Translations under genes and position numbers: made by a program
Virus record (IMG/VR): IMGVR_UViG_3300043788_000060
Coordinates: 46,257-110,256 of that record
Reading direction: 5' to 3' (one strand)
Origin: a virus
DNA length: 64,000 bases
Shown here: in pieces, positions 517 to 7,166 of the stretch
Layout: each line of letters begins with the position of its first letter
How positions within the stretch are numbered: position 1 is the stretch's first letter
The notes under the pieces: model-generated
Seen by the model: only the letters and a program-made list of their open reading frames with translations
Databases searched by the model: none
Told to the model about the DNA's origin: nothing

Positions 517-1461
517 TTGCGAAGCGACATCCATCCCAAGCGTTGGGCTTTCATAGCCGGTCTAATTGACGGTGATGGAAGTTTCAGTATCCGATATGAC
601 AAAGAGTCCGGATATCAATTAACTGTTAACATATATTCGACATCGAGAAATCTGATGAACTGGTTGGTCAAGCTGATTGGTGGCCAGTATCGAAAGATGC
701 CTACGAAGGGCAATCGTAAACAGCGGTATGCTTGGTATTCAGGGAATTCAGAAATTCCCACCAATGTTGCTCCGTATCTCATTCTCAAGAAAAGTCAGGC
801 AGAGTCTTCCGTTCTATTCTTTAATCTTGGCTCAGAGAGAAATCCTCAAGCTAGAGAAGAATTGATGAGAGACATTCAAAATGCTAATGACTTTTATGTA
901 CCAGCCAATAAAAAAGATGTACAGGATAGTCGAAAAAATCCGATAGAACCCACCAAACTGGATTGGGCCTATCTCTCCGGATTGTTTGATGCTGAGGGGT
1001 CTTTCGGCCTCCAAAGGCGCAGCAAAAAGGGCAACGGTTCCTATACATCTTACGCACGAATTTCAAACACAGATAATCGGGTATTCTTGTGGATCGCGCC
1101 CCGCTTCGGCGGTCGGTTTTCGGTTACTACCAAGGAACACGATAAAGATGAAGGCGCATGGACGTTGTCCGGCTCCATCGGTTTAGAAGGAAGAAAAGAT
1201 CGAGAGAACAAACTCTTGGCTTTGGTTCCTTATCTGGTTGCTAAGAAAGAACGTGCGGTGCTCTTTATGGAGTGGATTAGAAATAACCACCTATTGACCA
1301 AAGAGCAAAAATTGGATTATTTTCTGAGAATGAAGGCGTTGAACAAACGCGGAATCTCTCTAGAGACTAATACGGCGAACTGTCCAGAAAATGGACAGAT
1401 GATAGAGTCCGATCCTGATAGCGATATCAGGTGCGACCCAGCAGTGATGTTGGAGTCCTAA
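517..1461 (+). CDS. Intron-encoded double-motif LAGLIDADG homing endonuclease
   Basis: Motifs FIAGLIDGDG and YLSGLFDAEG. TTG start at 517 follows SD GGAGG at 505-509. The track start at 478 falls inside the promoter. Confidence 0.9.
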   Translation: MRSDIHPKRWAFIAGLIDGDGSFSIRYDKESGYQLTVNIYSTSRNLMNWLVKLIGGQYRKMPTKGNRKQRYAWYSGNSEIPTNVAPYLILKKSQAESSVLFFNLGSERNPQAREELMRDIQNANDFYVPANKKDVQDSRKNPIEPTKLDWAYLSGLFDAEGSFGLQRRSKKGNGSYTSYARISNTDNRVFLWIAPRFGGRFSVTTKEHDKDEGAWTLSGSIGLEGRKDRENKLLALVPYLVAKKERAVLFMEWIRNNHLLTKEQKLDYFLRMKALNKRGISLETNTANCPENGQMIESDPDSDIRCDPAVMLES

Positions 1462-1471
1462 AACACAAATA

Positions 1472-2078
1472 AGGAAGCCCGATCTCCGAATCGAGCACCA
1501 AGATCGTTGCTACCATCGGGCAGTATGCCGATTTTATCAACAGTTCTGACTTGGCTCTCGACGTAGCAATCGACGATCCGGGTTTGCTCCAGAATCTGGC
1601 AAACGAACTCAACTACCGGCTTGCTCTTACCCTCAACTCTCTTGTCCAGATCACAGCGGACTCGGCAGTTGCGGTGGACTCGCTGGTCAACACACAACTG
1701 GCCAACGGCTCGTATCTGACGGCGAACAACCTTCGTTCGGCAGTTCAGTCGCTGGTATCGGTCAACGCACGGCCTCTCGTAAATAACTCCTACGGTGGAA
1801 TCATTCACCCGAACGTGGTACGAGACATCCTCAACGACACGTCTTTCAATGGTCTAACCGACATTGTAAAGCGCGATCCTGAGATGGCGAAGATGCTGTA
1901 CGAACTCCCGAAGAATGATGATGTTATCAAGTTCGCCGGGGTCACGTTCAAGCAAACAAGCACTGCGCCGACGGTGACCATCAGTTCGAACACGTATTAC
2001 AACACTTACATCTTCGGGGACGACGCGATTTTCAGCGTCTTCTTGGGCAAGAATCCCGAGGATGGATCGAAGAACTAT
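1472..2078 (+). CDS. Major capsid protein, exon 2
   Basis: GSPISESSTKIVATIGQYADFINSSDLALDVAIDDP...YGGIIHPNVVRDI...GVTF...KNY, typical N4-gp56-family capsid motifs. Confidence 0.9.
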
Positions 2079-2296
2079 TTGCAAAAAGTAGCTTGAGCGG
2101 GCAACTGCTCTCGAACAGACCGTAAATTCGGTGGAACCCTCACAGAGGCAATACCGAGCCAAGTCGCGAAAGCGGAAGGTGTAGAGACTAGAGACGGTCC
2201 TCCCTATGGGATGATAGTATAGTCCGGACTGCACAGCGATGTGCAGAGGCAAACAGAAATGATTTGCCCGTCCGAATAATGGACAGTAACAAAACG
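2079..2296 (+). ncRNA. Group I intron 2 (218 nt, no ORF)
   Basis: P1 CUAU/GUAG with U2078-G2088; P3 GACCGU/ACGGUC; P4 UUCGGU/ACCGAG; P7 GAGACUA/UAGUCC; P9 GCGA-loop hairpin; terminal G2296. Removal restores the frame (KNY-KLF). Confidence 0.92.
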
Positions 2297-2350
2297 AAAC
2301 TCTTCATCCAGAGTGCGCCTGAGCAGGGAAGTGTAAGTGATCCAGCACGT
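2297..2350 (+). CDS. Major capsid protein, exon 3 (18 codons, KLFIQSAPEQGSVSDPAR)
   Basis: Lies in frame between the terminal G of intron 2 and the P1 splice site of intron 3. Confidence 0.85.
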
Positions 2351-2572
2351 CAACTTTAGGCGTCACTAAGGCGAAATCCTTAGAAGAAAATTCTATCTAA
2401 TTGACTTGGAAGCTGAGAAGCCAACAAGGCGGAACCCAGAAATCGGGACCGTGAGAGACTAAACGATAGAACACCCTTTGGGGTGATGCGATAGTCCGGC
2501 CTCATACGAAATGAAGTATGAGAGGTGTGCAGAAATGACGCACCCCGTCCATTTTAGACGAGTAACATTCCG
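2351..2572 (+). ncRNA. Group I intron 3 (222 nt, no ORF)
   Basis: P1 ACGU/GCGU with U2350-G2360; P3 UUCUAUC/GAUAGAA; P7 GAGACUA/UAGUCC; P9.0 GG/CC; terminal G2572. Confidence 0.92.
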
Positions 2573-3597: not shown

Positions 3598-3863
3598 GCT
3601 ACGAAACTTGGTTTCACGGCACGAACGAGGATTCGGCTCGTCTAATTATTCAAACCGGATTTCAACCCGGAACATATTTTGCAAAACACATGGAAGACGC
3701 AATCATATTTGGCGGTCCCTGCGTTTTCTGGATTAGAGTAGAATGGGAGCGAAAGAGTTTGGACGGATGGCAGCAGATAAGTTCTAACCATATTCCATCC
3801 AAGGCAATTGTAGGATTTTTCCTTGGAGAAGGTTGGTTCGAAGAAGCCAAGGAGGCCGCATGA
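3594..3863 (+). CDS. Small ADP-ribosyltransferase-fold-like protein
   Basis: WFHGT...IIQTGF...YFA pattern of ART-fold proteins; ATGA overlap with the upstream stop. Confidence 0.5.
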   Translation: MSYETWFHGTNEDSARLIIQTGFQPGTYFAKHMEDAIIFGGPCVFWIRVEWERKSLDGWQQISSNHIPSKAIVGFFLGEGWFEEAKEAA

Positions 3864-4108
3864 TCGCCTGTTGCGGGAGCCGGGCTATTGCGGATTATTG
3901 CAAACGGTGCGGTCGGAATTTAACGGCTCTTGGGCAATACCGAGATTATGTTCACTATGTCCCCGGAACTCAGACCCCATGTTTGACCATCGAAGAAGCC
4001 CTCGGAATGACCGAAGAGGAATTTGACGAGATAATAAATCCTCTTCAAGAAGAACTCGCAAGAAAGCTATCCGAAACCATTGACCTTTTAGTAAAGGATT
4101 TCACCTAA
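3860..4108 (+). CDS. Hypothetical protein with Cys motifs
   Basis: SD AGGAGG, ATGA coupling, CC..CxxC. Confidence 0.6.
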   Translation: MIACCGSRAIADYCKRCGRNLTALGQYRDYVHYVPGTQTPCLTIEEALGMTEEEFDEIINPLQEELARKLSETIDLLVKDFT

Positions 4109-4215
4109 TGCCCGTCTCCCCAGCATCCTCCAGTACCGGCCTGACAACTACCACAGCGGTTTTCTACGGCGCGAAAAAGAAACCCAAGCCGAGGAAGAAG
4201 CCAAAGAAGAAATGA
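4108..4215 (+). CDS. 35-aa peptide with a Lys-rich tail (MPVSPASSSTGLTTTTAVFYGAKKKPKPRKKPKKK)
   Basis: TAATG coupling at the start and ATGA coupling at the end; below the ORF-track cutoff. Confidence 0.55.
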   Translation: MPVSPASSSTGLTTTTAVFYGAKKKPKPRKKPKKK

Positions 4216-4714: not shown

Positions 4715-4950
4715 TGGACAAATTCAACCCATTTCGCAAGCTGGTCCCAAAGTCCAACCGAGTTGTCGGCGCAGTCAAAGCAATCCCGCTGTGGTTCCGG
4801 CCTAACATCAAACCGTGGGGTTACTACTCCGGAAGATTGGAAAGTCGTCCGGATTTCCGGAGACCGAACAGGGTACATCGAATCGAGATTTGTGCAGTAG
4901 TTTTTTACTGCATTTGCAGTAAAATGCCCGAGAGGGCCAAAACCAACTGA
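4714..4950 (+). CDS. Hypothetical basic protein
   Basis: TAATG coupling supplied by a copy of the 15-bp site. Confidence 0.4.
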   Translation: MDKFNPFRKLVPKSNRVVGAVKAIPLWFRPNIKPWGYYSGRLESRPDFRRPNRVHRIEICAVVFYCICSKMPERAKTN

Positions 4951-4995: not shown

Positions 4996-5940
4996 ATGAT
5001 GTACACGCAGGGATACATAGCATCTTTGAAGGTCGGAGGTAAAATCCTCCGGGAATCAAACGGAACAGTTTCGCTCCCATTTGGGTCTGAATATTCCGTG
5101 CTCCTCAAAAACAAACTCTCCCGTCGGGCTCAAGTCAAAGTCGAAGTAGACGGCCAAGACGCGACCGAGGGAACCAAGCTGATCCTGCCCGCAAACGGAT
5201 CGCTGGAGCTAGAACGCTTTATCAAGTCTGGCAACCTAAAAGCGGGCAACAAGTTCAAGTTTATCGAACGGACTTCGAAGATCGAAGAACACCGGGGAAT
5301 CAAAGAAGACGACGGCTTGATCCGAATCGAATTCTGGGCTGAGAAAGAAGTCGTAGATGTACCGGTTGTCCGGCATCATTATTACGATGATTGGGTTCCA
5401 GTCCGCAGATATTACTGGGATCGCCCGTGGTATGATCCGTACTACCCGACATGGCCTCAACCGACGATTACTTGGAATTCCAATTCCGGTATCCAAACTT
5501 CCTGCTATAATACAAGCGGAAGTTTAGGAGAGGCACAAAGCGATAATCTGGGCTCGGCGCAAAATTTTTCTGGCAGTTTGCAAAAATCTTCTGCGAGACA
5601 GACCAGAAGTCTACACCCGCAAGCGTCTAGCGGCATCACTCGCGATTCAGGTCAGCAAGTTCATGCTCAGAACTGCATGATGGCGGAAACCAGTTTCAAC
5701 GACGCAGGAATCACGGTCCCGGGAAGTCACTCAAACCAAGAGTTCCAAAGCACTTACGGGTTTGAAACCGAATCGAACAGTCACGTGATTGTACTTCAGT
5801 TGCGGGGTGTGGTTGGGGACAAACCAGTCGTAGTTCCGGTTACCGTAGACCACAAGCCGGTCTGCCCAACCTGCGGAACTACAAACAAGGCGCAAAATAA
5901 ATTCTGCAAAGAATGCGGAACGGCCTTGCAATTAGTCTAA
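4996..5940 (+). CDS. Hypothetical phage protein with a beta-rich N-domain and C-terminal double zinc ribbon
   Basis: SD AAGGAG; 314 aa; CPTCG..NKFCKECG. Confidence 0.8.
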   Translation: MMYTQGYIASLKVGGKILRESNGTVSLPFGSEYSVLLKNKLSRRAQVKVEVDGQDATEGTKLILPANGSLELERFIKSGNLKAGNKFKFIERTSKIEEHRGIKEDDGLIRIEFWAEKEVVDVPVVRHHYYDDWVPVRRYYWDRPWYDPYYPTWPQPTITWNSNSGIQTSCYNTSGSLGEAQSDNLGSAQNFSGSLQKSSARQTRSLHPQASSGITRDSGQQVHAQNCMMAETSFNDAGITVPGSHSNQEFQSTYGFETESNSHVIVLQLRGVVGDKPVVVPVTVDHKPVCPTCGTTNKAQNKFCKECGTALQLV

Positions 5941-5953
5941 AGTGTGGTATAAT
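5926..5953 (+). promoter_or_regulatory. Sigma70-type promoter in front of the large ncRNA candidate
   Basis: TTGCAA-16 nt-TATAAT with extended -10. Confidence 0.7.
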
Positions 5954-5959
5954 GTATTT

Positions 5960-6750
5960 GTTAGGTAGCGGGTTTCACCGGCCAAGGCGGAGTCTTTAAG
6001 CGAGAACAAAAACGGGAATGACTCTAACCGGTAGAGTGACCTTGGTTTGCAGATAGCAACATAACCGCCCAGAGCGTGATTATGCTGCCTATAAATTTCG
6101 AGTTTGCGTAAATCGAGGGATGCTGGCTACTGAGGAGCGAAGGTAGCTGGATCGGGAACTTCCCAAACCACCCCGATCTTTGCCCTCCTTGCTCAGAAAT
6201 GACGATTTACGCAATGAAGGTGAGGGCCACGGTTGGTCATACGTCCAAACTGTTGGGTAGGTACTGGATGGGACAGCCTCCAACAGCCCGTGGCCTGATT
6301 CCCAAAGGACAACATGATTGATTCAGAGTTTGGTTGGTGGCGTAGTTGGATTAGTGAGCTTCTTTCCTAGATCGATCTGGGAAAGATGAACCAGAGGTAG
6401 TTTCAGTTCAGCCCTCTCACCCCCGGAAGTCATGAGCCGGACTCGGGTGCTTATTAGAACTGAAGCGGGGATGGGGCTCGGGTTTGGCCTCAACGCATAC
6501 CCACGGGGTTCATTACCCAACAGGCCCAACATTTTAGGTTTGACCCTCTTCGGAGGAGAACAGCAACAAGCGGAACTTTAGTTCACACAAACTTGAGTTT
6601 TGACGCATCCCCCTCGCCCGGTACCTGCTTGTTTGGGGTGGCCCCTGAATTCCTAGGAATTCAGTAATCCGGTGGTCAAATGGTGGTGACACCTACCAGC
6701 CTGTGTGGGCAAAGTGGTGTGACTCTAGCATTCTCAGAGTAGAAGCTTAA
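5960..6750 (+). ncRNA. Large (~790 nt) structured ncRNA candidate, GOLLD/ROOL size class
   Basis: No + strand ORF of 60 aa or more in a gene-dense genome; own promoter; long-range helices 5962-5969/6084-6091, 6104-6115/6203-6214, 6225-6232/6288-6295, 6402-6409/6457-6464, 6357-6363/6741-6747. Confidence 0.7.
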
Positions 6751-6782
6751 TTTCGTCCAGATAATGGACTAGGGAGAAAACG

Positions 6783-6938
6783 ATGGCACCAAAGCATCCG
6801 GGGTTCAAAGCAGTTCAATCGAAGATCGCAGGAGAAGGCTATAGCAAGAAAGCAGCCGGAGCGATCCTCGCAAACGCGACACGAAATGCCAGCAAGTCTG
6901 CGAAGGCAAAGAACCCCAAACTCCGCAAAGTCAAGTAG
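6783..6938 (+). CDS. 51-aa very basic protein (MAPKHPGFKAVQSKIA...KNPKLRKVK)
   Basis: SD GGGAG; abuts the next gene; Lys/Ala-rich. Confidence 0.7.
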   Translation: MAPKHPGFKAVQSKIAGEGYSKKAAGAILANATRNASKSAKAKNPKLRKVK

Positions 6939-7166
6939 ATGGAAGAATCTCTTCAAATCCACCACAGCGAGCAGATTCACTGGGCTTCCTACGATCCGGA
7001 CACCCAGCAATTGAACCTGACGCTCAACGACCGGAGAAAGCACGGGTATTCGCCGGTCCCCCAAAAGGTGGTTAACGGATTTGTCCGCGCTAAATCCCAC
7101 GGGGATTTTTTCCACAAGAACATCAGAAACAACCCGAATTACCGATACCACGGAAAGGTAGAATGA
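6939..7166 (+). CDS. KTSC-domain protein
   Basis: S..I..ASYD...L.L....Y..VP...F..A.S.G.FF..NIR pattern. Confidence 0.75.
   Translation: MEESLQIHHSEQIHWASYDPDTQQLNLTLNDRRKHGYSPVPQKVVNGFVRAKSHGDFFHKNIRNNPNYRYHGKVE

Follow-up and report, generated by a model that had tools for sequence, protein, structure and literature searches.

Results

The window analyzed here covers bases 46257-110256, the right-hand 64 kb, of an IMG/VR phage record of 110,256 bp that is rated complete. Positions 5960-6750 of this window form a gene-free stretch of about 790 bases, in which no credible gene was found, flanked by the gene of a 314-aa Zn-ribbon protein (4996-5940) and by two small genes that make up a plus-strand operon (6783-7166) encoding a 51-aa Lys-rich protein (6783-6938) and a KTSC-domain protein (6939-7166; Pfam 9e-14). 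Homologues of both small genes occur in the same order in the phage contigs L003, L088, L220 and L226, and KTSC is found without a 51-aa homologue in L166 and L218. KTSC proteins at least 85% identical to that of the window were present in at least 100 contigs; INPHARED phages gave no match to either a DNA or a KTSC protein query, and no match was found when the KTSC alignment was compared with genome contigs.

The stretch was initially annotated as lying behind a strong promoter, and that promoter is real. A sigma-70-type promoter occupies 5926-5953 on the plus strand (TTGCAA at -35, a 16-nt spacer and the extended -10 TGgTATAAT, or 10 of 12 consensus matches plus the TG), its predicted start is near 5960, and the same promoter follows the Zn-ribbon gene in the relatives L003 and L166. 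The promoter motif TGTGGTATAATG recurs in the tRNA array of this phage and elsewhere in the window, where the family of near-identical extended -10 promoters comprises positions 481, 2729, 5945 and, on the minus strand, 27924, 51059 and 63822. Two promoters of this family drive LAGLIDADG and GIY-YIG endonuclease ORFs, and because of this shared promoter a decayed homing-endonuclease gene was considered for the stretch; the idea was dropped since no remnant was found. No terminator-like site was found in 5700-7000, so that read-through from the promoter into the operon is expected.

The non-coding character claimed for the stretch was borne out. The longest ORF is no more than 69 aa, stop-free six-frame pieces had no Pfam match and no significant PHROGs match (best E 0.068), tblastn of these pieces against approximately 200 related loci left the orphan part (see below) with no match, and a 49-aa ORF at 6432-6581 had zero relatives among 1.8 billion representatives. 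That this was the largest ORF-free stretch of the window is true of credible genes but does not hold from stop to stop, because two minus-strand frames run for 77 and 84 codons. The longest stop-to-stop gap of the genome is a different ORF-free stretch, 781 nt long (L084:2996-3776; genome 22996-23776), which matched no Rfam family at gathering score and is not similar to 5960-6750. ARAGORN found neither tRNA nor tmRNA in the 64-kb window, and neither a tRNA nor an RNase P-type substrate was found in 5800-6900.

No Rfam family was matched in the region at gathering score, including GOLLD (RF01998), ROOL (RF03087), OLE, RNase P and group I and II introns, and the Rfam 15 covariance models gave no match in 5800-6900 even at E<=10, so that membership in the GOLLD/ROOL class, which had been raised for this RNA, is not supported. 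Sensitivity of the search was adequate because the same settings found sub-threshold group I introns within window positions 1255-2515. These matches (1255-1431, 2068-2246 and 2329-2515; best 47.6 bits against a cut-off of 50) adjoin homing-endonuclease ORFs.

Folding statistics for the stretch as a whole were unremarkable. Minimum free energy was no better than that of shuffled sequences (z -1.28 on the plus strand and -1.03 on the minus strand), and in sliding windows local z fell below -2 only at 6100-6300 and was near 0 across 6400-6750. Perfect helices of at least 7 bp numbered 25 compared with approximately 16 expected in dinucleotide shuffles (p ~0.03), and those of at least 10 bp numbered 2 compared with 0.25 (p 0.02), although helix content places the region only in the top 4-6% among other 791-nt windows of this genome. 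With some 16 helices of 7 bp or more expected in shuffles, a single 7-bp helix carries no weight. The 12-bp helix 6104-6115/6203-6214 and the 20-nt palindrome 6645-6664 are both perfect, as described. The arms proposed to close a 3' domain, 6357-6363 and 6741-6747, are perfectly complementary over 7 bp but form a chance-level helix, the 3' arm of which falls in the tail of a separate module (M3, below). Likewise GGGGAUG/CAUCCCC (6467-6473/6606-6612) is perfectly complementary over 7 bp but is at chance level as a pseudoknot helix; its partner ACAAGCGG/CTGCTTGT exists but is shifted by one base and needs a G.U pair. The proposed pseudoknot rests on chance-level helices of 7-8 bp. A perfect 10-bp long-range complement is also present at 6250-6259/6514-6523, the 5' arm of which can pair locally with 6280-6286 in a hairpin (D3, below), giving two alternative pairings.

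Genuine RNA structure was nevertheless found within the stretch, most clearly at its 5' end, where the first transcribed bases had been claimed to pair with 6084-6091. A closing helix does exist there and is backed by covariation, but 5960-5967 and 6084-6091 as written lack complementarity; in fact 5962-5970 pairs with 6083-6091, two G.U pairs included. This helix (P1) and a second one (P2, 5975-5978/6076-6079) belong to a conserved structured RNA module on the plus strand at 5960-6095, here termed element A, which is approximately 135 nt long in the window and 115-140 nt among copies, with invariant internal loops and a variable apical part. The first homologue was found in the 104-kb phage L088, 3' of the KTSC gene, and a two-part pattern built from the conserved halves of A then led to ten more phage contigs, all confirmed by the covariance model (R1). 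Model R1 recovered 12 copies, 9 of them distinct, at 38-170 bits; the window copy, at 169.6 bits, was a seed sequence, and independent copies scored 38-86 bits. In an independent alignment of the nine distinct copies (A9), P1 is an 11-bp closing helix in which 9 of 11 pairs show compensatory changes and 93% of cells are paired, a level reached in none of 500 shuffles, with slid controls only 22-46% paired. A covarying closing helix of 9-11 bp defines the family and is present in the window. P2 is an invariant 4-bp helix (UCAC/GUGA), and invariance extends to some 35 bases within or next to the internal loops, with the core GCGGGUUUCACCG ... CCGCCnAGAGCGUGAUUAUG present in the window copy.

Element A had no match in Rfam 15, even at E<=10, and is a new RNA family. 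Its two-part pattern had two matches in 185,579 prokaryote species genomes, both of which lacked the invariant core, so that none was genuine. An 18-mer from A matched only the L088 contig among viral contigs and had 16 matches among metagenome contigs, none confirmed by R1. A relationship with Ro60 Y RNA was dropped as the putative Y RNA motifs are absent from element A.

In the window, L218, L220 and L226, only a few bases separate the start of A from a TGTGGTAyAAT-type promoter, while some copies have no obvious adjacent promoter. An ORF begins approximately 10-60 nt 3' of A in L218, L219, L221 and L222, in most cases with a readable RBS, and L217 carries element A within a tRNA/Y-like RNA array. 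In about six of the nine copies P1 is followed by a U-rich tract, and some transcripts may therefore end after A. Downstream genes are heterogeneous (Lys-rich peptide, KTSC, Zn-ribbon peptides, membrane proteins and RNA arrays), and no conserved SD-sequestering or terminator platform was found. In L088 the A copy is followed by about 320 nt of strong hairpins (L088:3826-4147; z -3.0 for 3700-4150), two of which carry in their loops CCUCCU, resembling the anti-Shine-Dalgarno end of 16S rRNA.

Immediately 3' of A is D2, a 111-nt plus-strand hairpin at 6104-6214 closed by the perfect 12-bp helix and located between A and a further domain, D3. The fold of 6096-6220 has z -3.84. D2 is lineage-specific: no homologue was found anywhere searched, and it is missing from L220, where the gap between A and D3 is approximately 14 nt. 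D3 (6216-6310, plus strand) is a conserved hairpin domain with an outer helix at 6224-6232/6288-6296 and an inner one at 6250-6256/6280-6286. Window positions 6216-6306 match L220 and its near-duplicate L225 with 86% identity over 93 nt (E 1e-24), and from 6248 onward the 3' core differs by just two substitutions, which make up one compensatory pair at 6260/6278 (G-C to A-U).

The next 375 nt (6311-6685, plus strand) are an orphan spacer, in which searches for homologues, coding signal and thermodynamic signal all found nothing. On the plus strand it holds two palindromes, one near-perfect (6361-6386; 26 nt, 13-nt arms with one mismatch and zero spacer) and one perfect (6645-6664), the latter identified in a short-loop hairpin scan as one of only three perfect hairpins in the 110-kb genome with arms of at least 9 nt and loops of at most 8 nt. 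Another of these three is a perfect 22-bp palindrome at window 4903-4924 (10-nt arms, 2-nt spacer), approximately 70 nt 5' of the Zn-ribbon gene. An 18-codon Trp-rich mini-ORF read from the sequence at 6314-6370 (plus strand), with a weak AAGGA upstream, occupies the place at which L220 starts a real 50-aa gene; it may be a chance occurrence.

At the 3' end of the stretch lies the M3 module (6686-6745, plus strand), composed of GTGACACCTAC (6686-6696), a variable loop, AGTGGTGTGAC (6713-6723), a hairpin at 6722-6740 and an AAUUU tail, with both 11-mers exact in the window. M3 was first recognized through a match of 6708-6769 to another site in the L003 phage, between two tRNA genes of its array, and it has since been found in L190 and 16 further IMG/VR phage contigs; those of these copies with surroundings checked are inside tRNA arrays. 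The genome of the window holds exactly two copies, the other one, likewise exact, in its own tRNA array between tRNA-Thr and tRNA-His (L084:12285-12333). The second hairpin varies in sequence between copies but keeps its pairing, and that of the window is atypical, with 5 bp, a different 9-nt loop and a UUAAUUUC tail as opposed to the usual GAGAGA-type loop followed by CAAUUU. A MAFFT alignment of the whole region to L190 was dropped because homology is confined to the two ends. A sub-threshold tmRNA match (L214:612-691; 29 bits, E 4e-8) is directly upstream of an M3 copy in a phage contig of 100 kb.

The stretch ends, as had been described, beside a 15-bp site (GTCC-N7-GGAC, 6755-6769, plus strand), which is 13 nt 5' of the start codon of the next gene. 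The genome has 56 copies of this site (consensus GTCCGAATAATGGAC), 50 of which fit the oriented consensus, many of these 10-20 nt before a start codon, and a search of five related phage records showed it to be abundant there too. The literature searched contained nothing relevant on the three motifs.

Comparison with syntenic relatives showed how the parts have been combined. L220 and its near-duplicate L225 have, in order, the promoter, A, 14 nt, D3, an RBS, the 50-aa ORF, the 51-aa protein and KTSC, followed in L220 by the same genes 3' of KTSC as in the window. In L218 the order is promoter, A, small ORF and KTSC. Relative to L220, D2 has been inserted between A and D3 in the window, and about 440 nt (6311-6750) replace the 50-aa gene, of which no remnant was detected. 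L003 and L166 have the same promoter and the downstream KTSC gene, but a 125-nt element B instead of A (L003:5935-6060 and L166:2685-2810), nearly identical in these two phages and with no Rfam match. In L166, B runs directly into a small Lys-rich ORF, different from the 51-aa gene, and then into KTSC; L003 keeps the 51-aa gene, and there B is followed by 320 unrelated bases and the 15-bp site that precedes it. No similarity was found between window 6095-6752 and the leaders of L003 and L166. Leaders of the closest syntenic relatives are 160, 240 and 450 nt long and differ in content.

Other RNA features were observed outside the window. A 31-tRNA-gene array lies at L084:8751-14746, preceded by three units sharing TCGCTTGTTC (genome 28873, 28985 and 29060), which are putative Y RNAs. 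A conserved leader RNA of approximately 200 nt is found upstream of tRNA-Thr(tgt) in this phage and in L190 (L084:11888-12200 and L190:1131-1367), headed by the same promoter and first transcribed bases as 5960-6750; a conserved ACCACCGAAA segment is the pairing partner of its 5' end, and the L084 copy holds a 47-aa CxxC...CxxC mini-ORF that is missing from the L190 copy. On the minus strand, HDV-like, twister-P5 and type II hammerhead ribozymes were matched at Rfam gathering level in genome 19.9-21.7 kb (L083:19884-19955, L084:1352-1406 and L084:1633-1701), and the HDV-like and hammerhead matches each contain a copy of the 15-bp site (genome 19898 and 21677).

Discussion

The present study indicates that 5960-6750 is a mosaic, made up of A, D2, D3, an orphan spacer with two palindromes, and M3, with a promoter at its 5' side and the 15-bp site at its 3' side. 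Homologues exist for A, D3 and M3 only, and all three were found separately in other contexts. The existence of the modules, the degree to which they are conserved and how A is structured were observed directly. One ornate RNA of about 790 nt is not supported: there is no Rfam match, z is -1.28 overall, the leaders of relatives are 160-450 nt long, and the modules occur apart from each other elsewhere.

On balance, 5960-6750 is probably a long composite untranslated 5' leader of the 51-aa/KTSC operon, assembled from independent RNA modules. This is consistent with L220, in which promoter, A and D3 stand in the same order ahead of the operon. We infer transcription itself, the extent of the transcript and its mechanism. 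Host RNA polymerase would transcribe the leader from the conserved extended -10 promoter; A and D3 would represent the ancestral leader, D2 and 6311-6685 additions of this lineage, and M3 with the 15-bp site a 3' boundary unit that is reused in the tRNA array of the phage. Element A would be the functional core, a closing-helix RNA with an invariant unpaired core a few bases from the transcript start. Counting against a leader are the positions of A 3' of KTSC in L088 and inside an RNA array in L217, which would fit a free-standing small RNA equally well. The 15-bp site before the 51-aa gene may also be a promoter itself, and if so the operon would not need an upstream leader.

The main rival to a composite leader is that the stretch is an RNA operon, i.e. 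that a promoter-driven precursor is cut into trans-acting small RNAs (A of about 135 nt, D2, D3 and M3) and that the downstream genes are expressed from the 15-bp site. We regard this as rather unlikely, although it is not without evidence. The L088 and L217 copies of A, the former after a gene and not before it, speak for it, M3 sits in tRNA arrays of this phage, of L190 and of the other checked copies, a unit of the tRNA array is headed by the promoter and first transcribed bases of this locus, most copies of A have a U-rich tract after P1, and the genome has ribozyme matches and 31 tRNAs. On the other hand, A is within approximately 60 nt of an ORF start in five phages (in L220 by way of D3) with a mostly readable RBS, no processing signals are known here, and 5800-6900 offers no tRNA or RNase P-type substrate. 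T4 species 1 and 2 RNAs are small stable RNAs of phage tRNA clusters, and both M3 and the A copy of L217 resemble them as non-tRNA structured RNAs among phage tRNA genes; the likeness is one of position, and the window copy is outside a tRNA array.

A less probable possibility still is that the stretch is one large ornate RNA of about 790 nt, of a new GOLLD/ROOL-like class and perhaps able to self-associate by means of its palindromic hairpins. In GOLLD the 5' part varies and the 3' part is conserved, the RNA is associated with tRNA islands and its kissing loops are palindromic; kissing loops also occur in OLE (PMC12286853). Like GOLLD and ROOL (RF01998, RF03087; PMC12286853), the region is phage-encoded, non-coding, of a similar size class and without known function, its limits are set by a promoter on one side and by M3, a 3' module common to tRNA islands, on the other, and its palindromes and helices of at least 10 bp exceed chance. 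It differs in having no covariance-model match at E<=10, in being thermodynamically undistinctive overall and near z 0 for 6400-6750, and in being mostly unconserved: those RNAs have complex structure conserved across many homologues, whereas D2 and the 375 nt at 6311-6685 are orphans. Relatives with leaders of 160-450 nt do without most of the stretch, length varies 5-fold among syntenic phages, and neither the long-range closure nor the pseudoknot helices rise above chance level. GOLLD and ROOL usually lie in tRNA-island neighbourhoods, but no tRNA is adjacent in the window, the tRNA array being about 17 kb upstream in the genome with only M3 common to both. That 5960 to approximately 6750 is nonetheless made and used as one modular RNA, with A as a handle, D3, lineage-specific cargo, M3 and self-association, is unlikely.

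Riboswitch aptamers invite comparison with element A because they too have a conserved unpaired core, covarying flanking helices and a variable periphery within a 5' UTR; the size of 115-140 nt and the U-tracts 3' of P1 in L217 and L218 would also suit a small-molecule sensor controlling downstream genes. However, the genes downstream of A have no common function and do not form a coherent regulated set, no recognizable or conserved expression platform and no ligand go with it, and in the window A is 690 nt from the next gene. A riboswitch thus seems quite improbable, and we do not think that A senses a metabolite. Least credible of all is that the stretch acts as DNA, as a replication origin or operator cluster, or is what a lost gene or mobile element has left behind as a non-functional scar. 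A zero spacer between palindrome arms is a typical feature of protein-binding DNA, the perfect 12-bp terminal inverted repeats of D2 resemble those of an inserted element, the 50-aa gene of L220 is missing from the window, and cumulative GC skew peaks locally near 52-53 kb of the genome. Yet skew falls steadily over the rest of the genome, so that the local maximum is not a clear origin signal, and no iterons or AT-rich tract were found, for which reasons a replication origin was dropped; there is also no detectable remnant of a lost gene, and the covariation in A and D3 acts at the level of RNA.

Returning to a composite leader with A as its core, the cargo downstream of A (several kinds of ORF, a tRNA/Y-like RNA array and this long leader) is too varied to suit a metabolite switch, and the core of A is conserved beyond what a mere hairpin would require, which argues for a cis-acting, promoter-proximal RNA. 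From this diversity we infer that A may act in cis on the transcript or the polymerase. It is possible that A works as the HK022 put RNA does, letting transcription pass the many downstream hairpins; alternatively it could protect the RNA 5' end or serve for docking of a conserved protein. The put RNA is a cis-acting antitermination RNA of approximately 70 nt with two stem-loops, which binds the zinc-binding domain of the RNA polymerase beta' subunit and suppresses termination (PMC9378689). Both put and A are phage RNAs that fold from the first transcribed bases downstream of a sigma-70 promoter (an early one for put), and the stems of put with their conserved bulges, acting whatever cargo follows, can be likened to A. 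Element A differs in its length of 115-140 nt, single closing helix, invariant core and variable apex, and has no known sequence similarity to put. What A shares with put is a promoter-proximal position, and put would be the nearest known way of working for A by analogy in position and logic, not by membership.

The analysis found three conserved phage RNA modules, A, D3 and M3, that Rfam 15 does not match, of which A is the clearest, and in most copies A is at or near the start of a transcription unit, before unrelated cargo. Were the whole stretch of about 790 nt to be one modular RNA after all, it would represent a new, fast-evolving class of large phage RNA. The locus itself shows leader RNA modules being swapped behind a fixed promoter in such phages. 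A role of A in modifying host RNA polymerase or in protecting transcripts, if true, would provide a second natural case of a put-like mechanism, here in environmental virulent phages.
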